Positions 842-58,287 are shown, counted from the first letter of the stretch. The stretch is DNA of 64,000 nucleotides from an uncultured Dehalococcoidales bacterium (GCA_964428725.1 CAYRYW010000011.1:144-64143), one strand, 5' to 3'. Made by a program: numbers and translations. Notes: generated from the sequence alone by a model not told the origin.

Positions 842-843
842 GC

Positions 844-1176: not shown

Positions 1177-1193
1177 TTAGTAGGTAGATTATC

Positions 1194-3578: not shown

Positions 3579-3595
3579 AACACTGAGGCATTGGC

Positions 3596-5491
3596 ATGTC
3601 CGGGGAACTGAATATCCATCTGGCAACAGGGCTGACTATCAAGGCGATAGTGTGGGGCGAGGACCGCACGACGCGATGGAATGGTTCGGCCATGGTTGCC
3701 GCCTCAGCTATTAGTGATGCTAATTGGGCCACTGGTATGATTACCTGCACGGAACAGCAAACATCCGACGCGAGCGGTACGGGTACATACGTTGGGGATT
3801 TCCCGGCAGGGATTACGACCGCTGGAGAGTATGCTATCGAGTATTACACCGGTGCCTCGCCGACACCAGGCCAAAACACGATGGGCGTCCAAACGGTCCA
3901 TTGGTCTGGCGCAGCAGTCGTCAATACAGACATCGACGCCAAAGCTGTGTGGGATCGTGTAATTACTAAGGCGAATCACAATATCGCTAATTCGGCTGGT
4001 AAGAAAGTAAGGGAGACAGCGGACTCCATTGTTATCTATGCCGGAGATGTAGTCTCGTCCACTGCGAATACAATTGTCCTTGATTCTGGCGCGAGCAGTC
4101 TTGACGGTGCCTATGATCCAGCCGCAATAGTGATTGTGTCAGGACTTGGAAGCGGGCAAGTGCGACACAGTCTTGAGTATTTCGGCAGTTCGCGCACGGC
4201 AATTGTAGATCGCGACTGGAAGGTGCAGCCAGATGCTACAAGCGAATTCGTGTTGCAGGCGGTGAACGGCGCGGCGACTACCAACGAAGGCCGGCTGCGA
4301 GCAGCAACAGGGACAACGGCGCAACTGAATGCGCTCGCAAGCACGGTAGACGACATATACAACGGGGAAACATTGCAGCTGGTAAGCGGTACGGGGCAGG
4401 ATCAATCGCGATCTATATTGGACTACGATGGCGCCACCCAAACGGTTACCGTGGATGCGTTCACTGTCACGCCGGATGCAACGACCGGTTACAAAATGCT
4501 CCCGATCATTACGGACAAATCCACTCTAGCGACTGAAGCGAAACAAGACACACTCCTTGCCAGAATCGGCGCATTCACGGGCACAGGTGTAAATACCGTC
4601 CTTGGATTCCTAAAAGCTATGGCGAGTAAGGCGGCTACGCTGCCTAGCGACATTGGTGGAACGTATGACGTGACGACAGACAGTCTTGAGGCACTTCGTG
4701 AATCACAAGACACACTGAGCACTGACATTGGTGATGTGCAGACAGATCAGACAACGCTGCTTAATAGAGTTGGAGCATTCACTGGAACTGGCGTCAATAC
4801 AATCCTCGGCTTCCTGAAGGCGATGACTAGCAAGGTTGCAACGCTACCCAGCGACATTGGCGGGACCTATGATGTGGCGGCAGATAGCCTGGAAGCCATT
4901 CGAGACAGGGGAGATGCCGCTTGGACATCGTCGGATACTGGTAGTGGAGCGTGGACCGTAACGATAACCGTCAACGATGGTACCGACCCGCTCGAAAATG
5001 CAACAGTTCGCATGACCAATGGAGGCGAGAGCTACACCGCGACAACGAACGTTAGCGGGCAATGCTCATTCTCGTTGGATTCCGCTACATGGAATGTCGC
5101 AATCACCAAGGCGACGTATTCCTTCACCCCAACTACACTTGCCGTATCGGCAGACACAAGCCAAACGTATTCGATGACAGCAGTGAGCATTCCAGCAAGT
5201 AATCCGGGCTTTGTTACGGGGTATTTCTACTGTTACGATGAGGATGGAATAGTTGAAGAAGGCGCATCGGTCTCCGTGAAAATACACGACTTGCCGGGCA
5301 CGGGGATTAGTGCGGATACCAAGGTGCGCACGGAAACGAGCGATGCAACCGGATTGGTATCATTTACCAACATGTTCATCGGAGCCCAATACAAGATACG
5401 ACGAGGCGACGAGCGACCGTGGAAGACGGTGGAGATTCCAGCGAGTGCAACCGATCCTTACGCGATTCCGAACGTGTTGGGGCTCGAATAA
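3596..5491 (+). CDS. Tail fibre protein with internally duplicated module and C-terminal Ig/carboxypeptidase-regulatory-like domains
   Basis: 631-aa ORF with a duplicated ~65-aa block (GAFTGTGVNT(V/I)LGFLKAM.SK.ATLPSDIGGTYDV). The C-terminal 'TVTITVNDGTDPLENATVRMTNGGESYTATTNVSGQCSF' is typical of a CarboxypepD_reg-like beta-sandwich. Confidence 0.6.
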   Translation: MSGELNIHLATGLTIKAIVWGEDRTTRWNGSAMVAASAISDANWATGMITCTEQQTSDASGTGTYVGDFPAGITTAGEYAIEYYTGASPTPGQNTMGVQTVHWSGAAVVNTDIDAKAVWDRVITKANHNIANSAGKKVRETADSIVIYAGDVVSSTANTIVLDSGASSLDGAYDPAAIVIVSGLGSGQVRHSLEYFGSSRTAIVDRDWKVQPDATSEFVLQAVNGAATTNEGRLRAATGTTAQLNALASTVDDIYNGETLQLVSGTGQDQSRSILDYDGATQTVTVDAFTVTPDATTGYKMLPIITDKSTLATEAKQDTLLARIGAFTGTGVNTVLGFLKAMASKAATLPSDIGGTYDVTTDSLEALRESQDTLSTDIGDVQTDQTTLLNRVGAFTGTGVNTILGFLKAMTSKVATLPSDIGGTYDVAADSLEAIRDRGDAAWTSSDTGSGAWTVTITVNDGTDPLENATVRMTNGGESYTATTNVSGQCSFSLDSATWNVAITKATYSFTPTTLAVSADTSQTYSMTAVSIPASNPGFVTGYFYCYDEDGIVEEGASVSVKIHDLPGTGISADTKVRTETSDATGLVSFTNMFIGAQYKIRRGDERPWKTVEIPASATDPYAIPNVLGLE

Positions 5492-7273: not shown

Positions 7274-7615
7274 ATGTATTTGGCACTCCGCCTGAAAATG
7301 ACGCTTGCCGAATGCCTAGCGAAAGTATCATATAACGAGTACCTAGCATGGCAAGCGTATTTTCAGCTTGAGATGGACGAGCCGAGCAGGACCGATTGGT
7401 ACCTGATGAGAGTTGCCCAAGAGGTGCGAAGCCAGACACATGCGTTATGTAATTCCAATGCGGCTGTTCCTGGCATTGAATCATTCAAGGTGCCCTTCGA
7501 GGTGAAACGACCACGCAAGGCTCCGGCGGCTCAGACCAAAAAGCAGGTGTCAGATATACTGAAAAAGCGGTGGATGGCTATTGTTGGAGGGGTAAAGCAT
7601 GGCAAGCGAAGTTGA
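7274..7615 (+). CDS. Second tail assembly chaperone-like protein
   Basis: 113-aa ORF directly preceding and overlapping the tape measure start. Confidence 0.4.
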   Translation: MYLALRLKMTLAECLAKVSYNEYLAWQAYFQLEMDEPSRTDWYLMRVAQEVRSQTHALCNSNAAVPGIESFKVPFEVKRPRKAPAAQTKKQVSDILKKRWMAIVGGVKHGKRS

Positions 7616-9749
7616 GCTAGAACGGCTTGTAGTCCGACTTCTCGGGGACCAAAAGTCCTATCAGGCCATGCTGAAGACTGCGCAAAGCAGCACTCGCTCG
7701 GCGACACGATCGATTGTATCGACATTAAATACGGTCGAGAGAAAAGCAGTGGAAACCGGCAAGGTGCTTACTGCTGCCATAACGCTACCACTGGTTGGCC
7801 TCGGCACCGCTGCTACGAAGATGTCTACCGATCTGAATGCCGCCATGGCGAACGTTGGGGCTCTCGGACTAGCGCCGGAACGAGTGCGCGAGCTGAAAAC
7901 GGGAGTCCAAGCTCTTGGCGTGGAAGTCGGCAAAACAACAGGCGATATTGCTGGTGGTTTGTTCCAGGTGGTCTCTGCATTTGGCGATACGGCAGATACC
8001 ATGGAGGTATTGCGGATCAACGCAAAAGCTGCCACTGCCGGGCTGGCGACTACGACAGATGCTATCAATCTCACTAGCGCAGTCACGAAGGGCTACGGCG
8101 ACACGTCAGCGAAAGCTGTCCAGAAAGTGGCCGACCTGGCGTTTGTCACGAACAAATTGGGCCAAACGACATTCCCGGAGTTGGCCTCAAGTATTGGCAG
8201 GGTCATCCCGCTAGCTGCGGAATTACAGGTTACGCAGGAAGAAGTCTTTGCGGTCATGGCTACGGGGACAGGCGTTACGGGGAATGCGGCAGAAGTGACT
8301 ACGCAATTACGCGGAGCCCTTCAGGCGTTGTCGTCTCCTTCGGCGGACATGATAAAGCTGCTGAAAAAGACTGGCTTCGAGAGCGGAAAGGCAGTTATTG
8401 AGCAGAAGGGCCTGCAGGGTGCTATAGAATTTGTCACCAGAGAGGCGACGAAGAGCAAACTGCCACTCCAGCGATACATCGGCAGCATTGAGGGGCAAAC
8501 ACTTGCACTTGCACTCACTGGCAGCCAAACAGATGTCTACAAGGAGAAACTGAAGGCGATGCAAGACGCTAGTGGTGCAGCGGAAGGGGCATTTGCAACC
8601 CAAACGGACACCATAAACAAGCTAGGTTTTGCTTACAAGAAAATGGTGGTAAGAGTTCAAGTTCTTGCGCAAAACATTGGAGACGTTCTAACACCTGCCG
8701 TGTTAGAATTGACAAAGCTTGTAGATCCTTTACTCACTTCTGTAGAAAAGTTGTCTCTAAGGTTCTCTCGTCTTGATCCAAAAATCCAAGCAACTACGCT
8801 TGCTGTCATTGCCTTAGTTAGTGCTGTTGGTCCGGCATTGTTCATATCTGCAAAACTTCTAGGTGTCCTTATAGCTACAGTAAAGGTATTGGCAGCAATC
8901 GTAGGGCTCATGAATCCTTGGGTAGTTGGGCTAGTTGCTGTAGGTGCTGCGATAGCCGGAATAGTGTTGTGGTTAGAAGGTTCGGACGGGTTGATTGCCG
9001 CTTGGAACAACGCAAAACAAGCAGTCATGAGCTTTGTAGATCGGTCGATAGGGTTTTTCCAGAACTTCCAGGAAAATATGGCAATAATCAACAAGTGGCT
9101 GAGAAACAATTGGAAGGTATTGCTATCAGACCTTGGAAAAAACTTCATGAATCTGATTCAAGCAATGGTCAACAACGCAAGTACTGGCGTTGGTCTTCTG
9201 GCGCGCCTGTTTGCATTGGGGGCAGGGTTCATTGCTAATAAACTTCGCGAGGTGTTCACTGTTCGGTTTATTCGTTCAGTTATGCAGGGCTTAAATACTG
9301 CACTTAAGCTTGTTATAGGTTTTGCCAAAGCTGCTGGAACAGCCATTGCCAAAGGTCTTTTGGGAGAAGAAGTTCTTTTCGCTCCTCCCCCAGAATTTGA
9401 AAGAGCCCTCATTCAAGGCTTTAAGGCAGACACCTTAGAAGAATTCAGCGAAGAGGTAGGAAACATTGTTAAAGGTGCTGTTCAGAATCTACAACTACCT
9501 AAAGTAGAGTTTACAGCATTGCCCGAAGTAAACCTGAAACGGACTGGTCCATTGCTTCCAGCGTTTCCTGATGTGCCGAGTTTATTGCAGGCATCGCCAG
9601 TGCAAAAAGAGACACAATCCGCACTGATAAACAGACTCGGACAAGATACGAGTATCACAAGGCTGCTGGAAGAGCAATTGCTAGAGCAGCAAGAGCTGAG
9701 AGGCGCAATCGAGACGTTGCCTGTCATCGAAACAGCGGAAATACCATAA
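7599..9749 (+). CDS. Tail tape measure protein
   Basis: 716 aa, Ala/Leu/Gly-rich and helical. TP901-type core ('TTDAINLTSAVTKGYGD', 'FVTNKLGQTTFPELASSIG') plus hydrophobic glycine-zipper segments. Confidence 0.85.
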   Translation: MASEVELERLVVRLLGDQKSYQAMLKTAQSSTRSATRSIVSTLNTVERKAVETGKVLTAAITLPLVGLGTAATKMSTDLNAAMANVGALGLAPERVRELKTGVQALGVEVGKTTGDIAGGLFQVVSAFGDTADTMEVLRINAKAATAGLATTTDAINLTSAVTKGYGDTSAKAVQKVADLAFVTNKLGQTTFPELASSIGRVIPLAAELQVTQEEVFAVMATGTGVTGNAAEVTTQLRGALQALSSPSADMIKLLKKTGFESGKAVIEQKGLQGAIEFVTREATKSKLPLQRYIGSIEGQTLALALTGSQTDVYKEKLKAMQDASGAAEGAFATQTDTINKLGFAYKKMVVRVQVLAQNIGDVLTPAVLELTKLVDPLLTSVEKLSLRFSRLDPKIQATTLAVIALVSAVGPALFISAKLLGVLIATVKVLAAIVGLMNPWVVGLVAVGAAIAGIVLWLEGSDGLIAAWNNAKQAVMSFVDRSIGFFQNFQENMAIINKWLRNNWKVLLSDLGKNFMNLIQAMVNNASTGVGLLARLFALGAGFIANKLREVFTVRFIRSVMQGLNTALKLVIGFAKAAGTAIAKGLLGEEVLFAPPPEFERALIQGFKADTLEEFSEEVGNIVKGAVQNLQLPKVEFTALPEVNLKRTGPLLPAFPDVPSLLQASPVQKETQSALINRLGQDTSITRLLEEQLLEQQELRGAIETLPVIETAEIP

Positions 9750-9762
9750 CGGAGCAAACACA

Positions 9763-10677
9763 GTGTCAGCCATTTACGTAGACCTGCTCGACTGGAGCCT
9801 TGACCGTGACGGTGAGGGGCACAGAACCTACACCTCGCTGCATAAGGTCGAGACGACGGATTATGGCGACGGGCCAGGAACCGTGATGGAAACCGCCGGG
9901 CTACCCGCGATAGGCTCGTTTTGGAATTTCGGCAACGAGGTGGATTTTTGGGCGATTTGTCGCCCCAATATGCGCGTGCGCAGGTACAAGGCACGCAAGG
10001 GCGAGAATCACGTACACTGGTCCGTGGAGCTTACGCACAGCACGATTCCTTGGGAACGGTGCCAAGACACCACAGTAGAAGACCCGCTATTAGAGCCACA
10101 GAGAGTAAGCGGGAGCTACGTGCGAGAGAAAACCGTTGCTGAAGTCGACAGAAACGGCGACCGGATCGAGGCGAGTAGCTTTGATCTGTATCCAGAGAAC
10201 CAGAGGCAGAAAGATGAAGTGCGGCCTGTAGTGCGGATTCAACAGAACGTGGCCGACTTGCAATTGGACCTATTTTCCGAGCAAGTCAACACAGTCAATG
10301 ACGATGTATTGTGGGGCATGCCAGCACGCACCATCAAGCTCTCGGAATTGTCATGGGAACGCAGGGTATTAGGTGTTTGCACCTACTACTATACGCGGAC
10401 GTTTGACTTTGAAATCAACTCGAATACGTTTGATTTGCATTTGCGGGACGAGGGATTCCGTGAAGTCAACGCTCTGAAGGTTGGTGCGAACCCTAACAAT
10501 GTCAAGGATTTCATAAACATCCTAGACAACGTAGACAACATGCCGACGTCGCCGGTACCGTTCCCTCTCGATGGCAATGGTATCTTCTTAAATCCAGGGC
10601 TGCCTGAGGTATTCAACGATTTCGAGCATTACGACGAATCGGACTTCACGTTGCTCGGGATTCCAACGACACTGTGA
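9763..10677 (+). CDS. Distal tail/baseplate protein candidate
   Basis: 304-aa ORF (GTG start) immediately after the tape measure. Confidence 0.45.
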   Translation: MSAIYVDLLDWSLDRDGEGHRTYTSLHKVETTDYGDGPGTVMETAGLPAIGSFWNFGNEVDFWAICRPNMRVRRYKARKGENHVHWSVELTHSTIPWERCQDTTVEDPLLEPQRVSGSYVREKTVAEVDRNGDRIEASSFDLYPENQRQKDEVRPVVRIQQNVADLQLDLFSEQVNTVNDDVLWGMPARTIKLSELSWERRVLGVCTYYYTRTFDFEINSNTFDLHLRDEGFREVNALKVGANPNNVKDFINILDNVDNMPTSPVPFPLDGNGIFLNPGLPEVFNDFEHYDESDFTLLGIPTTL

Positions 10678-11620: not shown

Positions 11621-12991
11621 ATGGGGAAAATCCCGGTCCTAAGCGCAAACGACATAAAACGCCTGCAGCAAGTGTTGCGAGAGCAGAAGGACAAGGCGAG
11701 GACGCCATTCCCCGTCAATACCATCAATCCGCCTGCTTCGGTCGGCACGTATATCGGGTGGCCAACGTCATCGGCGGGCATTCCAGCGTTGACCTCGCAT
11801 GGAGCTGGGCCGGACGACGATGAACCTGGCTCAGGCGATTGCGACATCTACCGGGTCTACAAAGACCTGACGGGCACTGCCGTTGTTGAGGCAATCGACA
11901 TCGAAGACAAGGAGGTCTTCAATTTCTCGACCAGTGTGATTCCGCAAGAGTGGATTATCATTTTCAAGCAGCCCAATGGACGATGGGTTGTGCCTCCTCC
12001 ATCAACGAACACAAATACCGATCTGATTTGGTGCGTGGCTACCGCTGATTGGCAAGAGGGAACCGGCACGACGTGCGACGATCCCTACGTGATGGTGCGG
12101 CATGCGTCCAGGTGTGGCGTTGTCGAAGACCCTGGAGAAACACCATTTGCGGTCTATCTGCCAAGGAAGCGGGCCGAAGGAATCGGACTGGACCCATCGG
12201 TATACGAAGATGATATCATTTCGTACAAGGTGGATGCCGAGGGGAACAAGATATGCCAGACTCCATATCTATGGTCATTCATAGGCCAGATTATGGAATA
12301 TGGGTCTGTAAGTTACCCAGGGAAAATCCCCACTGGATGGGAAGTATATTCGGCCGGTACTGGCAGGACAACGATACAGCTTGATGCAGCAGGAGAAACC
12401 AACGAGCAGACGGTTGGGAATATTGATGGGTTTACCTGGCATGGCGCAAGCGAAAATGGACACCCAGCACACACGGCGCAACCAGCCCACACGGTAACTG
12501 CTCATGGCACACACACGCTAGATACGCACGACGCACACACTATAGCAGATCATGATGACCATCCAGACCACGACCATCATCCACTTAGCGTGGAATCGGC
12601 AATCGATGCCGTTGGAGGGGCGTCTGGTGTTGCTGGTGATACTACTGGATACACATCCTACGAGGACCCGGACAATCATAGGCACAGCATACAGCTAGGG
12701 GCAAGCGAGGTTTGGCCGGCGCCCGATGAATCGAGCGGCGCAACAGCTATTGGCGCAGGTACAAGCGATGCCGGGTTGTTTTCGCATTCCACGCACGTAG
12801 ACGGGCCTGGCACAGGCGTTGGGCTCGGGCATGCTGCGCACGCAGGGACCGCATTGACAGACACATTTGAGCACACTGGAAGCTTGGGCCACGGAGAAAG
12901 CAGTCCACACTTGGGGCTGTACAATGGTGGCTTTGATTCCGACAATCGCCAGAAATTCATTGTTGTGAACAGAATCATCCGAATCAAATAG
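11621..12991 (+). CDS. Tail fibre/baseplate protein with His-rich segment
   Basis: 456-aa ORF containing 'HGASENGHPAHTAQPAHTVTAHGTHTLDTHDAHTIADHDDHPDHDHHP'. Last large gene of the tail module. Confidence 0.45.
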   Translation: MGKIPVLSANDIKRLQQVLREQKDKARTPFPVNTINPPASVGTYIGWPTSSAGIPALTSHGAGPDDDEPGSGDCDIYRVYKDLTGTAVVEAIDIEDKEVFNFSTSVIPQEWIIIFKQPNGRWVVPPPSTNTNTDLIWCVATADWQEGTGTTCDDPYVMVRHASRCGVVEDPGETPFAVYLPRKRAEGIGLDPSVYEDDIISYKVDAEGNKICQTPYLWSFIGQIMEYGSVSYPGKIPTGWEVYSAGTGRTTIQLDAAGETNEQTVGNIDGFTWHGASENGHPAHTAQPAHTVTAHGTHTLDTHDAHTIADHDDHPDHDHHPLSVESAIDAVGGASGVAGDTTGYTSYEDPDNHRHSIQLGASEVWPAPDESSGATAIGAGTSDAGLFSHSTHVDGPGTGVGLGHAAHAGTALTDTFEHTGSLGHGESSPHLGLYNGGFDSDNRQKFIVVNRIIRIK

Positions 12992-12992: not shown

Positions 12993-13268
12993 ATGGCTGG
13001 CACGGGGACAGAACTGAAAACCCTATTGCGTCGGTTTGGTATTCGTGCAACGGGTAGCTGTCAGTGCGAGAAATACGCCAAGCTAATGGACCAGCGAGGC
13101 CCGGAGTGGTGTAGCAAGAACATCGAATTCCTTATTGATGTACTGGAAGAATCAGCGGAGCAACGAGGATTGCCGTTTGCCAGGTTTGTGGGCAAAAAGC
13201 TGATACAAATAGCAATTATCAAGGCGCGTAAGAGGAGCGACACCTTATGCGATGGAGCTACGGAATAG
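12993..13268 (+). CDS. Hypothetical protein
   Basis: 91-aa ORF; its ATG overlaps the upstream stop. Confidence 0.4.
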   Translation: MAGTGTELKTLLRRFGIRATGSCQCEKYAKLMDQRGPEWCSKNIEFLIDVLEESAEQRGLPFARFVGKKLIQIAIIKARKRSDTLCDGATE

Positions 13269-13948
13269 CTACGGTGGATGAGCGGCTAGAGACTCTATTA
13301 CCTCCGACAATTGCATCATTAGCCAGGGCGGGATTCCATAAGCCTACGCTATTTGTCGATGGCTGCGAGGACCCAAGCAAGTACGATCATTTTCAGCTGC
13401 CGGTTGCCGCAAGGCGATATAAGGTGAAAACGAATGGACACTGGATGCTGTCCATCCAGGAATTGTACTATCGTAACCCGTGGTGTGATCGGTATGCGAT
13501 GTTCCAGGATGACATTCTCTGTTGCCAGAATCTTCGGGAATATCTGGAGCAATGGTATCCAGACAAGGGCTATTTGAATCTCTGCACGTATCCGGAGAAC
13601 GCCGACCGGATAGATGGCGGCAGTGGCTGGCATCCAGCGCCTAGAAATGGCAAAGGTGCGCAAGCCCTGGTGTTCGATCAACATTCACTTAAGGCGTTAA
13701 TGTCGGCGACCTATTTCTTTGATTGGGCCAAAAACAGGCGTACTGGTTTCAAAAACAATGATGGGGCTGTGTATTGCTCCCTCAAGCCTCAGGGCTACAT
13801 AGAGCATGTTCACATGCCGAGCCTAGTCGATCATACTGGCGCCGAAGGCAAGGGCGTCATGGGAACGCGCCACCAACCGGTCATCACGGCGTTTCCTGGA
13901 GAAGAGTACGACCCACTCAACAAGGACCAAGAAGGAGAGCACGTGTGA
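13247..13948 (+). CDS. Putative glycosyltransferase (GT-A-like)
   Basis: 233 aa with a 'MFQDDILC' DxD-like motif. First gene of a translationally coupled sugar-modification operon. Confidence 0.45.
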   Translation: MRWSYGIATVDERLETLLPPTIASLARAGFHKPTLFVDGCEDPSKYDHFQLPVAARRYKVKTNGHWMLSIQELYYRNPWCDRYAMFQDDILCCQNLREYLEQWYPDKGYLNLCTYPENADRIDGGSGWHPAPRNGKGAQALVFDQHSLKALMSATYFFDWAKNRRTGFKNNDGAVYCSLKPQGYIEHVHMPSLVDHTGAEGKGVMGTRHQPVITAFPGEEYDPLNKDQEGEHV

Positions 13949-14604
13949 AACGCTACAACCACGAACTGTCAGCGATAGACATCTTGGACTTGGTAGGTGA
14001 AGCACCTATCATGCTTGAGATAGGGTGTCACGAAGGCGCCGACACCATTCGGTTCTTGGAATACATGCCAGGAATACGGCTGTTCTGTTTTGATCCAGAA
14101 CAACGAGCAACCAAGCGATTCAAGCAAGCGGTGCTACCCGATGAGCGAGTAACTCTCTACGAGGAAGCGGTGGCGGACGTCGACGGCCCAAGAGACTTCC
14201 ATGCGTCGACGGGAAAGGCGGGTCGGCGGGATGATTGGGATTTCTCTGGCAGTCTGCGCGAACCAACAGGGCACCTTGCGAGATCGCCAGAAATAACATT
14301 CAAAGAGCCAGTGTCTGTGCCATGTATGCGGCTCGACACATGGTTTGCGGACCATCCGGAAATCGATAACATTGATTTCATTTGGGCGGATATCCAAGGT
14401 TCACAGCGGCTATTTATTGCTGGTGCGCAACACATCCTCAGTAAGACACGTTATCTGTACATTGAATCGCATGACCCGCCTCTTTATGCTGGTGAACCTA
14501 CCCAAGACGAACTGATTGATGAGTTGTATAGCATGTTTAGTCCTGTCGCCATATACAGGGAAAACATTTTGTTTGAGTCAATGACGGCGGCAAGTGTATG
14601 TTAA
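13945..14604 (+). CDS. FkbM-family SAM-dependent methyltransferase
   Basis: GTG start overlapping the upstream stop (GTGTGA). 'MLEIGCHEGADT' (motif I) and 'IDFIWADIQGSQRLFIAGA...YLYIE' are typical of the FkbM family. Confidence 0.6.
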   Translation: MKRYNHELSAIDILDLVGEAPIMLEIGCHEGADTIRFLEYMPGIRLFCFDPEQRATKRFKQAVLPDERVTLYEEAVADVDGPRDFHASTGKAGRRDDWDFSGSLREPTGHLARSPEITFKEPVSVPCMRLDTWFADHPEIDNIDFIWADIQGSQRLFIAGAQHILSKTRYLYIESHDPPLYAGEPTQDELIDELYSMFSPVAIYRENILFESMTAASVC

Positions 14605-14647
14605 GCGACCATTGTATTTGCGGAGTGGAAGAAGTAGGAGATATACT

Positions 14648-15391
14648 ATGCGTCTTGCCAAAGAGCTAATCGATTGGTATTACATCAATCTATCGCACAG
14701 AACGGACAGGCTTACGCATATCCGTGGGGAACTGGACAAGGCGGGGATTGCTGCGACACGTTTCGAGGCGTACAGGAAAGAGGACTACACGGGCAGCATG
14801 GATAATGTCAAAGCCATGCAGCATACTCCGGATACTATAGGTAATTGGCTGTCCCATACTGCGGTAATAGGGAAGGCGAGAGAGGGTCGAATTGTCGGGG
14901 TGTTGGAAGATGACGCGCTGATCTGTAGCGACTTTCAGGCACGGCTAGATTATATATGCAACGTCTTTAATAAGCCGTGGGACATATTTTTTCTTGGGGC
15001 AACGTTTCACGACGATCGTGGACAGTGGCATCCAGAACTAGGCTTTGACCATGAGTTGACAGATGTGCGTCACATAATCCGACTCTATGGGGCGTTTTCA
15101 AACCAAGGATATCTTGTTAATGGATACAGTGCCAACACAATCCTGGAAATGATGAACGACGTGATGCCGCATTCTACGGGGAGCGATCACGCGCTAATAC
15201 AGATACAGCCAAGGCTCAGGTGTTATGGCTTTGTGCCAGGGATGGTCTTTCAAATTGATAACCAATCAGATATCAGTAAAGGGATCACTCGTTTTTCTGC
15301 TTTCCTCAGGGGCCTTGGTCCGTATGCATGGACTGATACTCTAGGAGAATTTGATTATGAGTCCTGGGAGCGTGAACAATGCAAATCTTAG
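14648..15391 (+). CDS. Glycosyltransferase family 25-like (LPS/LOS-type)
   Basis: 'YYINLSHRTDRLTHIRGELDKAGI...FEA' is the N-terminal GT25 signature, with 'LEDDA' as the DxD-type motif. AGGAG RBS. Confidence 0.65.
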   Translation: MRLAKELIDWYYINLSHRTDRLTHIRGELDKAGIAATRFEAYRKEDYTGSMDNVKAMQHTPDTIGNWLSHTAVIGKAREGRIVGVLEDDALICSDFQARLDYICNVFNKPWDIFFLGATFHDDRGQWHPELGFDHELTDVRHIIRLYGAFSNQGYLVNGYSANTILEMMNDVMPHSTGSDHALIQIQPRLRCYGFVPGMVFQIDNQSDISKGITRFSAFLRGLGPYAWTDTLGEFDYESWEREQCKS

Positions 15392-16284
15392 TAACCGGTG
15401 TATCTGGTTTTATTGCGAGGGCGATTGCAGATGCACTGTCGGACGAGCATGAGGTATTCGGGCTCGCCCGTCGTGAGGTGTCGCCAGCAGGCTGGACATT
15501 CGTGCGAGGAGACGTGACGGAATATGGTAGAGTGCTCGAAGTGTTAGCGGATTATGAGATCGAGCAAATATACCATTGTGCCGCGAAATCGATAGTCAGA
15601 AACTGCATGAGAGACCCTATCGGATGTTTTCGCACTAATGCCATTGGCACATTGAATATCCTTGAAGCAGCGAGGCAGATAGGGCGAATAAAGGGTGTAT
15701 TATGCATTGAGAGCGACAAGGCCTATGGAGCCGGCGCGACACCATACACGGAAACGCAGCCACTCATGCCTACCAGCATTTACGAAGCGTCAAAGGCATG
15801 CGCCAGTCACTTAGTCCAGACATATCACAAAAGTTATGTAGTGCCAGCATTTAGTGTGCGGCCAGTGAATGTGTATGGGCCAGGCGACAGGAACAGCAGT
15901 AGAATCGTCCCGCGAACTATAAACAAACTAGCTAGTGGATTGCAACCAACTATCACCGATGGCGCGGCGCATTTCGTCCGGGAATTTATCTACATTGACG
16001 ATCTAGTGGAAACGTTGGTGGCATTGATGGGCAGAAGCCCATGGGGTGAAGTGTTCAATGTAGGAACTGGGCAGGTGTTATCGGTGCAGGACATGATATG
16101 GACGATCTGTAAACTAATGGGAAAGTCGGCAGAAGTAGAAGTGCAGAAGAAGCCACGTCTTCTGCGCGAAATTCCGAGACAGTCTCTATGTATAGACAAA
16201 CTAACACAATGGCTGCCACATCGACAACAGCCAGTGGCGCTGGAAGACGGCCTGAATAAAACGATTGAATGGTGGGCGCCATGA
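15379..16284 (+). CDS. NAD-dependent sugar epimerase/dehydratase (SDR family)
   Basis: 'ILVTGVSGFIARAI' Rossmann motif and 'YEASK' catalytic YxxxK; 301 aa. Confidence 0.85.
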   Translation: MQILVTGVSGFIARAIADALSDEHEVFGLARREVSPAGWTFVRGDVTEYGRVLEVLADYEIEQIYHCAAKSIVRNCMRDPIGCFRTNAIGTLNILEAARQIGRIKGVLCIESDKAYGAGATPYTETQPLMPTSIYEASKACASHLVQTYHKSYVVPAFSVRPVNVYGPGDRNSSRIVPRTINKLASGLQPTITDGAAHFVREFIYIDDLVETLVALMGRSPWGEVFNVGTGQVLSVQDMIWTICKLMGKSAEVEVQKKPRLLREIPRQSLCIDKLTQWLPHRQQPVALEDGLNKTIEWWAP

Positions 16285-17390
16285 ATGTTCTGTTAATGCA
16301 GCCATACTTCCAGAATGAGCCGAGGTCGCCGATAGCCATTTTGGATCTCGCTGCCTATGGGCGACAATTCGGCCATGTGGTGGAAGTGGAGTATCTGTCG
16401 GCGCATGCTAACTACGATGGTTTCGACGTTGTGGGAATCTCGGCTATTGCATTCAACAATGAGGTGCGTGAACAGTTGCGGCATATCAGGGAACACTATA
16501 AAGGCCGGATAGTCTTAGGGGGAAAATGTTGCGACACACTAGCGACAGAAGAGATAGTTCAACTACAGGCGATTGGGATAGAAGTGTTTACTTCACCAGG
16601 GGAATATTTATTTGCGAGAGAAGAGATAGATTATCAACACTATCCAGCGTGGAACGCATCGGACTTTGCTAGGCTTGATCCCAATAATTCGCACAATGAA
16701 GTAATGACAACCAGGGGATGTCCATATCGATGTAATTTCTGTCATAACACAGAACCGCGAATCAGGCATTTTGCACCAAGTAGGACTGTAGATATTTGCG
16801 AAATGTTGCTTAGCAAGTATCGTAAGCAATCGCTATTTTTCGTAGATGACGTGTTTGCGTTGGATGTGTCGCATATGGCGGCTATTCTAGATGAGGCTGA
16901 TCGCAGGGGGGTTGTGCTATCAGGGAAAACGACGTTTTTCTCGCACATCAGCCAGCTCGATGAAGAGCGGATAGAGGCTATTTCACGATACGATCCAATG
17001 CATGTGCAACTTGGCATTGAGAGTGGAAATGCGGACATGCTCCGTGCCATGGGGAAGACATTTTCGCCAGAGGAGGCAAGTAGGAAGCTCAGGATGCTAT
17101 GGGAACGGGGGATTCCTGTTGTCTGTTTGTTCTTGCTGGGCTTCCCAGGTGAAACCAAAGAGAGCTTGAATGATACAGTGGACTTTATCAGGCAACATGT
17201 ACAATATACGCTAGCATGTTGCGCGGGGTATTATCAGCCAGTGCGTGGCACGGTCGGATGGGGCTTGGCGGAGGCGAGAGTAGGTGAGATAGAGCCTAAA
17301 GGCTGGAACCGGGAGATATCGTATGTGGACCCAAACATTACTGGCGACGACCTAGAGGCGGCGCATAAAGCAATAGAGGAGTTGAATTGA
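16281..17390 (+). CDS. B12-binding-domain radical SAM enzyme
   Basis: 'TTRGCPYRCNFCHN' CxxxCxxC cluster after an N-terminal Rossmann-like (B12-binding) region. ATGA overlap with the upstream gene. Confidence 0.8.
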   Translation: MNVLLMQPYFQNEPRSPIAILDLAAYGRQFGHVVEVEYLSAHANYDGFDVVGISAIAFNNEVREQLRHIREHYKGRIVLGGKCCDTLATEEIVQLQAIGIEVFTSPGEYLFAREEIDYQHYPAWNASDFARLDPNNSHNEVMTTRGCPYRCNFCHNTEPRIRHFAPSRTVDICEMLLSKYRKQSLFFVDDVFALDVSHMAAILDEADRRGVVLSGKTTFFSHISQLDEERIEAISRYDPMHVQLGIESGNADMLRAMGKTFSPEEASRKLRMLWERGIPVVCLFLLGFPGETKESLNDTVDFIRQHVQYTLACCAGYYQPVRGTVGWGLAEARVGEIEPKGWNREISYVDPNITGDDLEAAHKAIEELN

Positions 17391-18253
17391 GAATGCAACG
17401 AACATCAGATAATGTGGTTATATTCGCGGCATCGCCAAGCTATTTCGATCACGCAAAAGCCGCAATGGTCAATTGTCGAATCGAGGGTGAATGGTGCGGA
17501 GATATCGCGTTAATAGTTCCGCAAGGAACAGATACTACCGAGTTTAGTGGTCGGCAGATACACATACTGGAAGGAACATCAGCAGACGGCTATTACCAGA
17601 AGTTCGATGTATTCTCGCAGTTCTTCAGGCAATGGGATAAGGCATTATATCTTGATTGTGATATTCTTATCCAGGGAAATATTGCATCAGTATTTGACAC
17701 ATTGCACAAGCGACGACAGCCAACCATCATTGCTGATCGCGAAGAAAATACTCTAGAGCATTGCTTCACCTTTTGGATCGACGAATGTAACAGAACACTC
17801 AAAGAGGAGGGTAAACCATTCAGGTCATCAAATACACAGTTGCATGAGTGGGTGTGGCGCACGCATGGACAACAGTGGCGGCAATACAATACGGCCATGT
17901 TGTTGTTTAGGCCTGATGACATCCCGTCGGACGCGATAGATCAACTGCATGAAATGTGTACCCGCATTCAGCCAATCAATACGCATTGCGTCCGTGGTAC
18001 TGACCAGCCTGTTATAAATCTTGTTTTTTACAACATGCTGTCCGATGTGATCAACAAGGAGGTATCGTGTTGGAGTTGCCCGAATGACAACACGAAAATC
18101 ATACACTATTGTTCCGGGTATGCACCATGGATAGATAAGCCAGACGCTGGGATGGATGCTTACGCTAACCCACAATTGGGTGAATCATGCCACGCAGTGT
18201 ATACTCGCAATCTTCAGCAATTTGATTCCATATTGCCAAAGGAGGACTTGTAA
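17387..18253 (+). CDS. Nucleotide-diphospho-sugar transferase (GT8-like)
   Basis: 'ALYLDCDILIQGN' DxD motif; 288 aa; start-stop overlap. Confidence 0.5.
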   Translation: MRMQRTSDNVVIFAASPSYFDHAKAAMVNCRIEGEWCGDIALIVPQGTDTTEFSGRQIHILEGTSADGYYQKFDVFSQFFRQWDKALYLDCDILIQGNIASVFDTLHKRRQPTIIADREENTLEHCFTFWIDECNRTLKEEGKPFRSSNTQLHEWVWRTHGQQWRQYNTAMLLFRPDDIPSDAIDQLHEMCTRIQPINTHCVRGTDQPVINLVFYNMLSDVINKEVSCWSCPNDNTKIIHYCSGYAPWIDKPDAGMDAYANPQLGESCHAVYTRNLQQFDSILPKEDL

Positions 18254-18802
18254 ATGCTGGACATGACGGACAGAGGCACAATGGCGGCCACTCTTCCTAA
18301 TGGCGGCGTGGTGGCGGAAGTTGGCGTGCAGCATGGCGATTTCGCCGACATGATCGTGCGATTTAACAAGCCACGAAAACTCTATCTGATCGATTGTTGG
18401 GAAACGCAATCCGTGGCGGATTATGGACATGATCCAGCAAACGTCGCACAAACACAGCAGGACGAAAACGAAAGAACGACTAGGGAACGGTTCAAAGACC
18501 ATGCGAATGTGGAAATAATCAAGGGGTACTCCGTTGAAGTAGCCGAGACATTCCAGGACGAAAGCTTAGACTGGGTCTATCTAGATGCCAATCATTTGCG
18601 GATTCGTTCTGACTTAGAGGCATGGATTCCTAAAGTGAAACCTGGCGGTTGGGTCACTGGCCATGATTATTGCATCTTTGATGATTTTATTATGGTGCAG
18701 CCTGTATTGGATAGGTTCGTTGAGGAATACGGCGCACAATTGCACGTTGTGACGAATGAAGACTTCCCTAGCTGGGCATTCAGGAAGCATGGACACAAAT
18801 GA
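18254..18802 (+). CDS. Class I SAM-dependent methyltransferase (TylF/Methyltransf_24-like)
   Basis: 'VAEVGVQHGDFA' motif I-like and 'WVYLDANH' motif. Confidence 0.65.
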   Translation: MLDMTDRGTMAATLPNGGVVAEVGVQHGDFADMIVRFNKPRKLYLIDCWETQSVADYGHDPANVAQTQQDENERTTRERFKDHANVEIIKGYSVEVAETFQDESLDWVYLDANHLRIRSDLEAWIPKVKPGGWVTGHDYCIFDDFIMVQPVLDRFVEEYGAQLHVVTNEDFPSWAFRKHGHK

Positions 18803-19608
18803 GTACGAGTTTTGCGATTACTGCATACAATGAAATGTCGCCACAGCGCGGCTCTGGCGCGAAAATACTTAGATGCCTGAAAGCAGCGCAAAATCATCCT
18901 GGTATTGATGAGATTGTGGTTGTGGATGACTGCTCAGAGGATTGTGATGGGTTGGAACACTTACTGCGAGGACAGGCAAAAGTATCTCTTTTCCGAAATC
19001 CGCACAATTACGGAGTCTTCGGGAATAAACTGGAAGCCATCGCCAGGGCAACTGGCGATTGGGTAATTACGTGCGACTCAGACAACAGCATGGATAGTAC
19101 CTTTATCGACAAGGTGCTATCATTAGCCACCGATCAATCTGTATGGTTATGTGCCAGTTTTGCGAGGCCGCGATTCAATTATCGGCCACTTGCGTCAGAT
19201 ACTCCGTATACATTGACTAGTATATCACAAATCGTGCCACACCCGATTTTCTGTTGCTTCTTCAACACTGGAAATCAGACAGTAGCTAGACGATCATTCC
19301 TGAATGTCTTTGGGCAATATCGTGGCATCAGGGCAGATAGGCAACTGCCGAATTGGCTGGAGTTGTCAGAACAGGACTTGCAATCAACATACTATGAGCA
19401 AGTCTTCGATGCTAATGATTCGTTTGTCTACAACTTGCTCTGGTTGCTTGCTGGAAATAAGTTGCGCATAGTGCCTGGCCTGGAATACGATCATTATTAT
19501 GCAGCTGGCGAAGAGGGCAACTATTTGCGGTCGCCACCTGAAAAGGTGGCACTTGGGCAGCGACTCTTGCAGGCACTGAAAACAGAAATAAAGAAACAGC
19601 ATGTATAA
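18799..19608 (+). CDS. Glycosyltransferase family 2
   Basis: 'FAITAYNE...', 'IVVVDDCSED' and 'ITCDSDN' are classic GT2 motifs. Confidence 0.75.
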   Translation: MSTSFAITAYNEMSPQRGSGAKILRCLKAAQNHPGIDEIVVVDDCSEDCDGLEHLLRGQAKVSLFRNPHNYGVFGNKLEAIARATGDWVITCDSDNSMDSTFIDKVLSLATDQSVWLCASFARPRFNYRPLASDTPYTLTSISQIVPHPIFCCFFNTGNQTVARRSFLNVFGQYRGIRADRQLPNWLELSEQDLQSTYYEQVFDANDSFVYNLLWLLAGNKLRIVPGLEYDHYYAAGEEGNYLRSPPEKVALGQRLLQALKTEIKKQHV

Positions 19609-20422
19609 TTCAGACTGGCTTATTGGCGAACATACCTATCGGCAATTTATTGAGGATTGTAGGCTTGCAGTGTCCGATCCTGTGTATTTCCCGGTCTTTC
19701 GCCAAATGCCAGGGATCGCCTGTGTCACAGAAAACAAGGACGTTGAGCACAAGGTATTGAAGCCGATCTTATCTGAACTGTGGAGGCATTCCCACACGAC
19801 ACTTGAGGATGCGGCATTCTTGCATGCATTAGACGATGTCGGAACACCAAGACGGCATCACATAACGCGCACGCTGCACGTATCACATACTCTCATACAC
19901 ACACTCGAAGACGTATGTGTCATTCGCGAATTTATGGGTGGCACTCTACACGGGAAGCACGTAGTGGAAATAGGAGGTGGATATGGGCTACTTGCTGCCA
20001 TGGTAGTGCATTTTCTTGAGCCAGCTAGCTACACTATCTACGACCTGCCGGAAGTGTGCGATCTTCAGAAGAAATATCTGCATCATGTAGGAATAGATTC
20101 AGTCAAGTTGTGTACGGATGCAACTATCTCTAATGTGTCTGATCTCGCAATAAGCCTTGATTCTATTTCGGAGTTGCCACTGGTACTACGCCAGACGTAC
20201 GTTGATTCTGTGCTCGACAATGCAGAAAGAGGATTTATCAGGTGGAATTGCACTAGAGCGGCAACTACCAATGTCCTTGCCGCTATGTATTGGCTGAGAA
20301 ATGCGTCATGCATTAAAGAGATCGGGCTCGACTTTTCCACAGAACAGGCCGCAGCGAAGTTTCACCATTCCAGGCGCACGAGTCATATATTTTGGGGCGG
20401 GAATACAACATGTCACGAATAA
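19601..20422 (+). CDS. Putative sugar O-methyltransferase
   Basis: 'VVEIGGGYGLLA' SAM-binding glycine motif; operon context. Confidence 0.5.
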   Translation: MYNSDWLIGEHTYRQFIEDCRLAVSDPVYFPVFRQMPGIACVTENKDVEHKVLKPILSELWRHSHTTLEDAAFLHALDDVGTPRRHHITRTLHVSHTLIHTLEDVCVIREFMGGTLHGKHVVEIGGGYGLLAAMVVHFLEPASYTIYDLPEVCDLQKKYLHHVGIDSVKLCTDATISNVSDLAISLDSISELPLVLRQTYVDSVLDNAERGFIRWNCTRAATTNVLAAMYWLRNASCIKEIGLDFSTEQAAAKFHHSRRTSHIFWGGNTTCHE

Positions 20423-21321
20423 TAACCATGTCGCAATTTGGCACCATGGGTAGAGCAGCAAATCAGTTTTTGCAATACGCATTTCTGAAGACATGGGCTG
20501 CCAAATATTCCATGGACTTGGAAATCCCGCCGTGGATAGGGAATACATTATTCGGCACTGTCGACACGCCTATAGGACGAACGCTTCCGCCATACCACGA
20601 GACTCCGGGTAACAGCCTGCTGCAGCCAACCTTGCCTAACGAGAATGATATCGACAATCGCGATTATCGCGGGTATGGACAATATCACACAAGTTTTTAC
20701 GGCGGTTATGAACTCTATCTGTCCGGTTTGTTCAGGCCGACATTGGATACAGAAAGTCGCCTGGTTGATGCACGCAAGCGATTGTTGCATGATTGTGACA
20801 TTACCATAGGCTTGCATGTCCGTCGAGGAGATTATGGCAGGCGTATCTTTCCACTAACGCCGATCAGTTGGTACGTCAACTGGCTGGAAACACATCTGCC
20901 ACGATTGACGGGATACAAGCTATTTGTAGCCAGTGAAGATCCAACCGTTGCGTCAGAACTGACAGGATACCACGTAGAGACAGCAGAATCATTGGGTGTG
21001 CAATACACATCGGAGCAATATGCACACTACAACTATCTTCGAGAGGACCTCAAGAGCGGAAATCCTGGAGATATAGATTGGTATCCGGATTTCTACTTGC
21101 TGTCGCAATGCGACATTATCGTAGGTGGAGCATCCACATTTTCGTTTGTTGCCGCAATGCTCAATCCGTTTTTGCAAGAGTACTGGCGCGCCACGCTTGC
21201 GGATAGGCAATTCGTACTGACCGACCCGTGGGACGCCTATCCATTTATCCGAGAGCATGTGAGAGATTACTCCCACATTCCTGGCATCACTGCTTCACCA
21301 GACAACCCGTACTGGAAATAG
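20410..21321 (+). CDS. GT11-like (alpha-1,2-fucosyltransferase-type) glycosyltransferase
   Basis: The 'GLHVRRGDY' motif is characteristic of GT11 fucosyltransferases. The N-terminal 'GRAANQFLQYAFLK' fits (GN.mFqya). Start chosen at ATG 20410. Confidence 0.55.
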   Translation: MSRIITMSQFGTMGRAANQFLQYAFLKTWAAKYSMDLEIPPWIGNTLFGTVDTPIGRTLPPYHETPGNSLLQPTLPNENDIDNRDYRGYGQYHTSFYGGYELYLSGLFRPTLDTESRLVDARKRLLHDCDITIGLHVRRGDYGRRIFPLTPISWYVNWLETHLPRLTGYKLFVASEDPTVASELTGYHVETAESLGVQYTSEQYAHYNYLREDLKSGNPGDIDWYPDFYLLSQCDIIVGGASTFSFVAAMLNPFLQEYWRATLADRQFVLTDPWDAYPFIREHVRDYSHIPGITASPDNPYWK

Positions 21322-21381
21322 CCCTAGCCCACTCGTCGCATGGTGCATTCGCTCCCGCCATGCTGTAGAGTTGGGCTAGGG
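21322..21381. terminator. Nested-hairpin bidirectional terminator between convergent genes
   Basis: CCCTAGCCCA (21322-21331) pairs with TGGGCTAGGG (21372-21381). An inner GCATGG/CCATGC stem sits at 21338-21343/21358-21363. Confidence 0.4.
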
Positions 21382-21394: not shown

Positions 21395-21955
21395 TTAGAT
21401 CAATAGTCGCCGTCGTGTGAAGAACACAAGCCCAGCAATCCCCGCTAGGCCAGCAAGAAACGTGCTCGGCTCCGGTGCAGACACAGCCTCTCTGACAAGC
21501 GCATGCCCGCCAAAGCGATCGCCTTGCACCCAATCGGAATGTACGGAAGTGACGCTCCAGCCCGTATGAGCGTGGCCAAGTAATGGGTCTATCTGGCCTA
21601 GTGAGAACATCTGAATGTGTGCCCTAGGCCCATCGATAATCAGGACCACGGCTTCCTCTTCGGGTGTTCCCATCAGGTCAAACACAGTCGCCGCAAGAGC
21701 ACGATCTTCCTCATTGACGAGTCCTCCGATTCGCTCGAAATGGAACTTCTCCAGGAATTCCTGGAATTCCGATACCGTGGCATATCTCCATTCCGACAAC
21801 TCCACTTCGGGAGGTGTCAACCCTGCTGTCTCGCTCCAGTCGAGCCAATCAAGTCCCGCGTCCGTGTCTGTAGTGTATGTGCCATGGTCGATCATTTCAG
21901 CGGACGCATGGCTAACCGATAGCAGTAGTCCGACGAACACAAGTAGGCGTGTCAT
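21395..21955 (-). CDS. Secreted PEP-CTERM (exosortase-sorted) protein
   Basis: Signal peptide 'MTRLLVFVGLLLSVSHASA'. C-terminal 'PEPSTFLAGLAGIAGLVFFTRRRL' is a PEP motif plus TM helix plus basic tail. Start set at the ATG ending at 21955. Confidence 0.8.
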   Translation of the reverse strand: MTRLLVFVGLLLSVSHASAEMIDHGTYTTDTDAGLDWLDWSETAGLTPPEVELSEWRYATVSEFQEFLEKFHFERIGGLVNEEDRALAATVFDLMGTPEEEAVVLIIDGPRAHIQMFSLGQIDPLLGHAHTGWSVTSVHSDWVQGDRFGGHALVREAVSAPEPSTFLAGLAGIAGLVFFTRRRLLI

Positions 21956-22045: not shown

Positions 22046-22312
22046 TCAAGTAGACATCTCATTGTCAGGCTCCTTTCTTGGTTGGCCACGAGGCCAGCCG
22101 CCACGTTGCGGCGTGGCAGCATACCTCGTGACATCGGATTGCAGGATCTGGTAGTGCCAGATTCCCAAATATTTTTTCCGTCGTGCCCGCAGCTTGCGCG
22201 ATCGTATCAGTGATCGCACGTGGCTTGGGCTGCAACCGATCTGTTCGGCTGCCTCTACTGGCGTGCAATATCTATTCAATTGGTTCCTCCTCTGCGGCGT
22301 AAATGTAGACAA
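22046..22312 (-). CDS. Excisionase/MerR-type helix-turn-helix DNA-binding protein
   Basis: 'YCTPVEAAEQIGCSPSHVRSLIRSRKL' matches the HTH_17 excisionase-family pattern. Confidence 0.6.
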   Translation of the reverse strand: MSTFTPQRRNQLNRYCTPVEAAEQIGCSPSHVRSLIRSRKLRARRKKYLGIWHYQILQSDVTRYAATPQRGGWPRGQPRKEPDNEMST

Positions 22313-22466
22313 AATAGTCTACAGTCTGTCCGACGGCTAGAGCCTGCTGGATGATTTTGCGTCGCGCCTGGTGCTCCGTGTCCGCAGTAACATTGCATCG
22401 CTCTCGGCGGTAATCATCTACAGAGTCGCGAGAGCGAGTGACGATCGTGGATCGATATCTAGGCAT
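22272..22466 (-). CDS. Hypothetical protein
   Basis: 64-aa ORF coupled with its neighbours on the minus strand. Confidence 0.35.
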   Translation of the reverse strand: MPRYRSTIVTRSRDSVDDYRRERCNVTADTEHQARRKIIQQALAVGQTVDYFVYIYAAEEEPIE

Positions 22467-22830
22467 GGCGTGTTTCCTCGTTCATGGTGAAAAAATTATA
22501 AGCAAATGCGTCCTCGTCGCTCGAATCCAGGCCAATGAGGAGCGGCTCGCCATCGCAGGCACAGAGCCACAGGTCGAGGCCGAATTCGCGATCAAGGCCA
22601 TGCGTATCAACCGACGCATTATAGGCGCCAGTGTATACACATGAGTCACGATTCCATCGGTAGATTGTGCCGCATTTGCGGCACCGTACCTGGTCGATTT
22701 CTGGCAATAATCCCATGTCAATCCTCTGTAATTCCCGTACTGTCATGATGGCCTCCATGGTGGCTAGGAGTGTACTGTACAATCTGACTCTAGCAGGATC
22801 ATCGGCAGAATGCAATAGCCATCCACGCAT
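22459..22830 (-). CDS. Hypothetical protein (possible Zn-ribbon)
   Basis: 123-aa ORF containing 'CRKCGTIY'. First gene of the leftward operon from the divergent control region. Confidence 0.45.
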   Translation of the reverse strand: MRGWLLHSADDPARVRLYSTLLATMEAIMTVRELQRIDMGLLPEIDQVRCRKCGTIYRWNRDSCVYTGAYNASVDTHGLDREFGLDLWLCACDGEPLLIGLDSSDEDAFAYNFFTMNEETRHA

Positions 22831-51783: not shown

Positions 51784-51806
51784 AAACCATTTACGAGGGC
51801 AGAAGG

Positions 51807-58269: not shown

Positions 58270-58287
58270 TCCGGAAGGGATTGAGAT

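Follow-up and report, generated by a model that had tools for sequence, protein, structure and literature searches.

We describe an eleven-gene glycan synthesis and modification island in an uncultured, tailed, siphovirus-like phage of about 65 kb. The phage genome fills a 64,000-nucleotide stretch of DNA deposited under an uncultured Dehalococcoidales bacterium (GCA_964428725.1 CAYRYW010000011.1:144-64143; hereafter the window). The island lies directly behind the tail genes. The same slot is occupied by a glycan island in at least 100 contigs of uncultured phages, with a conserved first glycosyltransferase and a highly variable remainder. We judge it slightly better than an even chance that the island is a system of phage-encoded virion glycosylation, with the distal tail protein encoded just upstream (11621-12991) as its most likely target.

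An earlier note on this DNA had described 13247-21321 as a ten-gene, translationally coupled operon directly after the tail-fibre genes, amounting to about one eighth of the genome. Ten tightly packed, co-oriented open reading frames (ORFs) were indeed found there on the + strand, and their 8075 nt make up 12.5% of a 64.8-kb contig. The setting behind the tail genes was right and the start was not, as the module begins one gene earlier, at 12993, with the small protein s91. This gene is counted in because it accompanies the first glycosyltransferase whatever the family of that enzyme. The island and its borders comprise the following features (SAM, S-adenosylmethionine; SDR, short-chain dehydrogenase/reductase; NDP, nucleoside diphosphate):

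11621-12991, + strand: t456, last large tail protein, with a conserved N-terminal domain; candidate glycan acceptor or docking partner
12993-13268, + strand: s91, small protein with the Cys motif G-x2-L-x7-G-I-x3-10-C-x-C
13247-13948, + strand: g1, glycosyltransferase of GT-A fold (predicted structure), from an unnamed, phage-only family
13945-14604, + strand: g2, FkbM-family SAM methyltransferase (PF05050, TIGR01444)
14648-15391, + strand: g3, GT25-family glycosyltransferase (PF01755)
15379-16284, + strand: g4, extended-SDR NDP-sugar 4,6-dehydratase or epimerase (PF01370)
16281-17390, + strand: g5, two-domain radical SAM enzyme of putative class-B (B12-binding-domain) architecture (PF04055)
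17393-18253, + strand: g6, GT8-family glycosyltransferase (PF01501)
18254-18802, + strand: g7, Methyltransf_24 (TylF-like) SAM methyltransferase (PF13578)
18799-19608, + strand: g8, GT2-family glycosyltransferase (PF00535)
19601-20422, + strand: g9, class I SAM methyltransferase of the NanM sugar O-methyltransferase type (TIGR04371)
20410-21321, + strand: g10, GT11-like (alpha-1,2-fucosyltransferase-like) glycosyltransferase (HVRRGDY motif)
21321-21381, no strand: hairpin between convergent operons, probable bidirectional terminator ending the late operon

Likely start codons were corrected for g2 (13945), g3 (14648), g5 (16281), g6 (17393), and g10 (20410). Of the nine junctions within g1 to g10, six are overlaps: three true 4-nt ATGA/GTGA overlaps and three that span 8-13 nt. 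Two others leave 0-2 nt between the genes, and the remaining one is a gap of 43 nt that carries its own AGGAG. The tight junctions behind the proposed coupling are therefore real, while the claim that nearly every one is of the ATGA/GTGA type fails, with only three of nine strictly so. Upstream, 1 nt separates the end of the tail gene at 11621-12991 from s91, which in turn shares 22 nt with g1. Promoter-like matches in the region were in no excess over shuffled sequence, and the two best sigma-70-like sites (23035 and 24121) lie at the start of the early genes. The hairpin at 21321-21381 has a minimum free energy of −40.4 kcal/mol (z = −4.5; 0 of 200 shuffles folded equally well). Given the tight tail-gene junctions, the lack of promoter excess, and the terminal hairpin, we place the island at the 3' end of the late (tail) operon. 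Its GC content is 48.5%, against 55.2% for the rest and at least 52.1% for every other 8-kb segment, and this low value marks it as an acquired, mosaic module. Transmembrane segments were found in none of the 11 island proteins.

No profile in Pfam, NCBIfam, or PHROG matched g1, and sequence searches of the PDB with g1 and g10 returned nothing. The AlphaFold model of g1, built with 34 homologues, has a GT-A fold (predicted local distance difference test [pLDDT], 92.8); its best Foldseek neighbours in the PDB are GfsA, POMGnT1, mimivirus R655/R699, and COLGALT1, and its likeness to the GT-A enzyme gp87 of Mycobacterium phage Ardmore is at the level of the fold only (template-modelling score, 0.58). 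Invariant residues are D38, D88-D89 (the QDD motif), E186, H189, and H196, the last two being the C-terminal histidines. The protein collection contains 119 homologues and IMG/VR 91, almost none of them named. The 50,697 deposited phage genomes searched by tblastn yielded no match to g1 or g10. We regard g1 as the candidate initiating enzyme.

Occurrences of s91, which has no Pfam match, were counted with a regular expression and a first-round hidden Markov model (HMM). It adjoins g1 in 21 loci and is fused to it in frame in 6 loci, and in one relative (L115, 11332-13269) the s91 domain forms the C-terminus of a GT2-type enzyme that replaces g1 (E value, 2.7e-23). The fuller motif of the domain reads G-x2-L-x7-G-I...C-x-C...GP-x-WC, and it occurs free, N-terminal to the g1 family, or C-terminal to GT2.

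For the remaining genes, Pfam calls were judged against curated gathering cut-offs, which seven genes pass. The glycosyltransferases g3 (PF01755, 28.6 bits against a cut-off of 24; EDD motif), g6 (PF01501, 41.5 bits against 24.3; DCD motif), and g8 (PF00535, 65.3 bits against 23.3, 8.6e-18; DSD motif) are among them; g3 also matches phrog_2835, annotated as a glucosyltransferase, and has a 60% identical homologue in L004. The fifth such enzyme, g10, scores below the PF01531 cut-off (19.9 bits against 23.9). That domain is recorded in more than 40 of the 72 g10 homologues, and those with names, alpha-1,2-fucosyltransferases, are 34-36% identical to g10. Among the methyltransferases, g2 matches PF05050 (FkbM/Methyltransf_21; 48.1 bits, 1.8e-12) and TIGR01444 (8.6e-16) and is 56-60% identical to its counterparts in L001 and L003, g7 matches PF13578 (54.7 bits, 2.1e-14) and weakly PF05711 (TylF), and g9, with an EIGGGYG motif, falls just short of TIGR04371 (42 bits against 44, 7.6e-11). 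The five glycosyltransferase-like proteins of the earlier note were thus recovered (three above Pfam cut-off, g1 by fold, and g10 by motif and homologues), as were its three SAM methyltransferases (FkbM and Methyltransf_24 above cut-off, the GGGYG-type g9 as a NanM-like protein just below). Profile and fold searches together support all of these assignments.

The predicted SDR sugar epimerase/dehydratase is g4, which matches PF01370 (Epimerase/SDR) at 173 bits (6.9e-51) and has SDK and YEASK motifs. Its top NCBIfam match, under the equivalog cut-off, is dTDP-glucose 4,6-dehydratase, and its best PDB match is 6vlo, the UDP-glucose 4,6-dehydratase R141 of Mimivirus (cited section of PMC9614988). 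The earlier note had also listed a B12-binding radical SAM enzyme, and the radical SAM part of that call holds: g5 matches PF04055 (Radical_SAM; 82 bits, 5.7e-23) and has the CxxxCxxC cluster motif as CPYRCNFC. Its model (pLDDT, 92.6) matches MgmA, TsrM, OxsB, and CysS over the full length in Foldseek and, equally, AprD4. That radical SAM enzyme is no methylase but a 1,2-diol dehydratase of sugars, and it is not known to use cobalamin despite its fold. PF02310, for the N-terminal Rossmann-like B12-binding domain of class B enzymes, has no match in the sequence of g5 itself, and some homologues carry it; "B12-binding" here describes the architecture, with cobalamin binding predicted from the fold alone.

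Homologues of g5 at 44-49% identity occur on phage-sized metagenomic contigs, likewise after tape measure and tail genes. Seven genes are common to these contigs at 36-60% identity (FkbM, GT25, radical SAM, GT8, Methyltransf_24, GT2, and GT11-like). In L010-L013 and in most IMG/VR loci, g1 is again the first gene behind the tail genes, followed in various relatives by UDP-glucose dehydrogenase, sulfotransferases, other radical SAM enzymes, GT2, GT47, and SDRs. Related islands have a median of 8 genes and 7.1 kb. An independent search used the tail protein t304 (9763-10677), with no selection for g1, and was confined to IMG/VR loci with at least 7.8 kb downstream; g1 followed the tail genes in 28 of the 31 loci found, and a GT2-type enzyme of 631-650 residues held the same slot in 3. 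As judged from these sequences, the tail operon throughout the lineage closes with a glycan island whose first enzyme is conserved and whose other genes change fast. No polytopic membrane protein was present among 418 ORFs in 53 related islands, nor was any flippase, polymerase, Gtr-type or Oac-type component, or priming phosphoglycosyl transferase. Streptomyces phage SF3 was considered as a parallel and set aside; its radical SAM gene lies outside any glycan context.

The tail protein in front of the island, t456, has a conserved N-terminal domain of about 130 residues and a hypervariable C-terminus, which is His/Thr/Gly-rich in the window copy. An HMM of the N-terminal domain matches 62 of 89 related loci, with C-terminal lengths of 165-1058 residues. 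Fibre and receptor-binding proteins are usually laid out in this way. The C-terminus of at least 10 distinct relatives (L027, L036, L063, L078, L080, L095, L115, L116, L119, and L127) holds mucin-like Ser/Thr tracts, of up to 43 consecutive Ser/Thr residues, between Cys-rich modules, and all tracts with at least 19 Ser/Thr per 30 residues in the first set (1930 ORFs) belong to the t456 family. The first glycosyltransferase directly follows the mucin-like protein in L115, L116, and L127; two smaller ORFs intervene in L119. The tail proteins of these relatives other than L063 are 700-1058 residues long, with repeated Cys/Trp modules (C-x-G-x-C-x-W-x-W...) and poly-Thr/Ser linkers (for example, L119:11358-13469 and L080:2838-5273). 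Theirs is an extracellular, mucin-like architecture, unusual for phage tails.

The sequences establish the enzyme families, the layout of the operon, the recurrence of the slot in more than 100 phages, and the hypervariable gene content; from these we infer an acceptor, an order of steps, and a biological role. The island would be a fully cytoplasmic glycosylation system, coexpressed with the tail genes, whose product would be a methylated, partly deoxygenated or C-modified oligosaccharide on a virion protein. In the proposed sequence, g4 would convert a host NDP-hexose to an NDP-4-keto-6-deoxyhexose, g5 would modify the sugar further by C-methylation or AprD4-like deoxygenation, and g1 with s91 would place the first sugar on the acceptor. 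The GT25, GT8, GT2, and GT11-like enzymes would then extend the chain, and the three SAM methyltransferases would O-methylate it. Such a glycan may shield or stabilize the fibre, or alter adhesion.

We favour virion glycosylation over remodelling of the host surface because the island is continuous with the late operon, because the 53 related islands lack membrane components, because the first glycosyltransferase keeps its place next to the tail protein, and because the homologous tail protein of relatives carries mucin-like tracts. The lack of a lysogeny module among the scanned ORFs adds support, as do precedents in mycobacteriophages, PBCV-1, and Mimivirus.

The window is a nearly complete phage genome, since its own proteins occur on the 64.8-kb contig. 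Searches with PHROG and Pfam located the small terminase (49496), the large terminase (50167), the portal (51780), an SPP1-gp7-like head morphogenesis protein, a major-capsid-like protein (58824), and head-tail connectors, together with an early region encoding Erf, an exonuclease, NinG, a ParB-like protein, two helicases, and a DNA methyltransferase. The ORFs scanned against these two databases include neither an integrase nor a CI-type repressor. Nearly every gene of the window lies on the + strand. Phage genes, not host genes, border the cluster on both sides, which rules out the chimeric window that the earlier note had raised as a concern. Two further features flank the island:

7599-9749, upstream of the island: tape measure protein (PHROG/Pfam)
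21395-21955, − strand: PEP-CTERM protein gene, with a Sec signal peptide MTRLLVFVGLLLSVSHASA, a sorting tail PEPSTFLAGLAGIAGLVFFTRRR, and a strong Shine-Dalgarno site

The PEP-CTERM gene ends a leftward operon that converges on the hairpin, diverges from the early genes, and contains an HTH_17 protein. Other leftward genes are at 22046-22312 (−) and 22459-22830 (−), and L001 and L003 also have leftward small genes and HTH_17 after their islands. This operon, in which there is no integrase, may act as a regulatory or lysogeny-like module. About 90 related loci all lack the PEP-CTERM gene, and its product was for that reason rejected as an acceptor or obligate partner of the island.

Metagenomes containing the window sequence are from sediment and seawater. 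Megablast of the island against deposited phages found no DNA-level relative, and scans of IMG/VR with the radical SAM enzyme alone or the portal alone found no close relatives. The sigma-70-like promoters, strong Shine-Dalgarno sites, and PEP-CTERM gene argue for a bacterial host; read from its sequence signals, the PEP-CTERM gene implies a Gram-negative host with an exosortase. The best named relatives of the portal (51780-53315) are the haloarchaeal tailed viruses HJTV-4, Hardycor1, and HATV-3, at 28-30% identity and above any bacterial phage. A haloarchaeal host was rejected, as the cytoplasmic enzymes have isoelectric points of 5-7 and are not acidic. Labels of metagenome-assembled genomes (MAGs) were rejected as a guide to the host, being mutually contradictory (Opitutaceae, Dehalococcoidia, and Caulobacter). 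L012, L013, and L014 are phage-sized contigs (65, 74, and 37 kb) of the same lineage that lie inside MAGs with these labels; their placement is probably a binning artefact and is unusable as a host assignment.

Elsewhere in the window, fibre and spike genes lie between the head and tail modules at 2-5491. They encode a beta-helix-like protein truncated by the window edge, a 794-residue spike with a pectate-lyase/rhamnogalacturonase-like N-domain, and a 631-residue protein with a duplicated segment of about 50 residues. Just upstream of the major capsid gene, two adjacent paralogues (57790-58779; 159 and 163 residues), both ending in ...EYTGY, are candidate decoration or scaffold proteins. Between the genes for head completion and those for the fibres is a 476-residue trypsin-like serine peptidase (61441-62871) with an N-terminal signal/anchor, a coiled Ala/Glu-rich region, and a second hydrophobic segment; it may be a lysis or envelope-acting protein. 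At 63562-63957, inside the structural region, is a 131-residue protein with a twin-arginine-like signal (MKRRSFLAGIAAVVLTPVSA).

The earlier note had offered two readings, host-surface remodelling and virion glycosylation; the evidence favours the latter, and neither is proven. Several points weigh against virion glycosylation. It is a proposal from genes alone, in which late expression is deduced from the gene layout alone. Neither the tail protein nor the major capsid protein encoded in the window carries a mucin-like tract, so the acceptor in the window phage is argued from relatives. That the gene order is conserved could be due to common ancestry in a single phage lineage, with no functional link behind it. 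GT25, GT8, GT2, and GT11 are classic families of lipopolysaccharide (LPS), lipooligosaccharide (LOS), and O-antigen synthesis, and such enzymes act without transmembrane segments on lipid-linked acceptors at the inner membrane face. Cellular homologues of g5 (about 40% identity) occur in bacterial polysaccharide loci with GT4 enzymes, methyltransferases, and MBOAT, and the low GC content of the island fits capture from a host polysaccharide locus. These last observations on enzyme families, g5 relatives, and captured-looking composition speak at the same time for the remodelling of host envelope glycans, in which lipid A-core (LOS-type) or undecaprenyl-diphosphate-linked intermediates would be extended and methylated at the cytoplasmic face and exported by the host as altered LPS or exopolysaccharide (EPS). 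The benefit could be superinfection exclusion, or progeny that are not trapped on cell debris. Clusters of glycosyltransferases in cyanomyoviruses have been read in this way (PMC12801897), and the PEP-CTERM surface-protein gene beside the island, together with the pectate-lyase-like spike, suggests that host surface glycans matter to the phage, although no relative has the PEP-CTERM gene. Against such remodelling stand the position of the island, last in the late operon and lacking its own promoter, and a first glycosyltransferase that stays with s91 beside one tail-protein family even when the glycosyltransferase family is swapped. The 53 related islands include no flippase, polymerase, ligase, or Gtr-type or Oac-type membrane protein, and with no integrase among the scanned ORFs, a lysogenic state that could profit from seroconversion is not apparent. 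We consider host remodelling unlikely, yet it keeps an appreciable minority share of the probability because the membrane-protein and integrase negatives are compatible with inner-face extension of lipid-linked intermediates and because cellular relatives of g5 occur in polysaccharide loci.

Two further explanations carry less weight. The product might be free or loosely attached, as a glycosylated small molecule, a shift in the nucleotide-sugar pool, or a polysaccharide that coats particles noncovalently, or it might be a glycosylated host cytoplasmic protein. Radical SAM enzymes, methyltransferases, and glycosyltransferases do meet in natural-product pathways as well, AprD4 and TylF-like and FkbM-like proteins are the nearest characterized relatives, and the window phage's own virion proteins show no acceptor motif. 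The fixed slot after one tail-protein family is then unaccounted for, five glycosyltransferases imply an oligosaccharide on an acceptor, and Pfam and NCBIfam found no scaffold-forming enzyme in the island (polyketide synthase, nonribosomal peptide synthetase, or precursor of a ribosomally synthesized and posttranslationally modified peptide), so that we think this explanation improbable. Glycosylation of the phage DNA as a hypermodification to evade restriction is, in our estimate, very improbable. Phage glycosyltransferases are known to glycosylate hydroxymethylated bases (as cited within the relevant section of PMC12619734), and this phage encodes a DNA methyltransferase. The island, however, sits in the late tail operon, away from the replication genes, and no hydroxymethylase (thymidylate-synthase-like), base-modifying kinase, or other enzyme that would create an acceptor base was found among the ORFs scanned with Pfam and PHROG, small ORFs being only partly covered. 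To our knowledge, three O-methyltransferase-like enzymes and five glycosyltransferases exceed any known DNA glycan system.

Beyond virion glycosylation in the window phage, we tentatively put forward a broader hypothesis, to which we give rather less than an even chance. Throughout this siphovirus-like lineage of at least 100 contigs, the island would be a hypervariable, O-antigen-like locus in which a GT-A or GT2 enzyme docked through s91 starts O-glycosylation of the tail fibre, and exchanged glycosyltransferases, methyltransferases, sulfotransferases, and radical SAM enzymes diversify the glycan. If this is true, these phages would alter the sugars that cover their receptor-binding organelle in much the way that bacteria diversify their O-antigens, and the system would be the first of its kind outside actinobacteriophages and the first with radical SAM sugar chemistry; as far as we found, virion glycosylation in phages has been demonstrated experimentally only in mycobacteriophages. 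Virion glycosylation would then be a general phage strategy and a new axis of phage-host and phage-environment variation. The island also offers an unnamed GT-A family, a small accessory domain, and a compact class-B-type radical SAM enzyme of sugar pathways. For viromics it calls for caution, as such clusters are often classed there as auxiliary metabolic genes that serve host LPS or EPS.

Among known systems, serotype-conversion cassettes (Gtr, Oac, and D3-type Wzy/Iap) comprise one to three genes, centred on integral membrane proteins; the prophage expresses them, and the integrase is usually their neighbour. They share with the island the alteration of glycans by phage genes; the island differs in having no membrane proteins, no integrase found, and a place in the late operon. 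The cyanomyoviruses P-SSM2, S-SCSM1, and S-SCSM2R encode many GT2, GT11, and GT25 enzymes and nucleotide-sugar epimerases of undemonstrated function (PMC12801897). The likeness lies in the combination of GT2, GT11, and GT25 with nucleotide-sugar enzymes in a lytic phage. Their genomes exceed 200 kb, however, with these genes scattered or in hyperplastic regions, whereas the present module is compact and occupies a fixed slot in a 65-kb phage.

Enzymes for virion glycans are encoded by giant viruses, among them A064R (two glycosyltransferase domains and a methyltransferase domain), A061L, and A111-114R of PBCV-1, and R141 of Mimivirus (cited sections of PMC9614988). As described there, glycosyltransferases, sugar O-methyltransferases, and an NDP-sugar 4,6-dehydratase, all of which have counterparts in the island, build methylated deoxy-sugar glycans on virion proteins in the cytoplasm. 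The hosts of those viruses are eukaryotic, sequence homology is detectable only for the SDR g4, and the island adds the radical SAM enzyme g5, of which the cited sections of PMC9614988 mention no giant-virus equivalent.

In layout the island resembles mycobacteriophages (Che8, cluster O Corndog-type phages, and Myrna), which encode glycosyltransferases in tandem, together with an O-methyltransferase, that act on proteins of the capsid and of the tail tube (Freeman et al. 2023, as summarized in the cited sections of PMC11600133 and PMC12619734). In both cases, soluble phage glycosyltransferases and an O-methyltransferase lie beside, and co-oriented with, virion structural genes, and according to those sections, the mycobacteriophage glycans are proposed or shown to be on virion proteins. 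The island described here is larger, with 11 genes against about 3-4 in the systems covered there, and adds an SDR dehydratase and a class-B-type radical SAM enzyme to the set reported there. It is also set apart by a new first glycosyltransferase with an accessory domain and by its slot at the tail end. Neither g1 nor g10 has a sequence match in those systems, and g1 shows a generic GT-A fold likeness. The candidate acceptor here is the distal tail protein, in contrast to the C-termini of proteins from capsid and tail tube in the cited accounts; the host is probably Gram-negative, and the content of the island is hypervariable among relatives.

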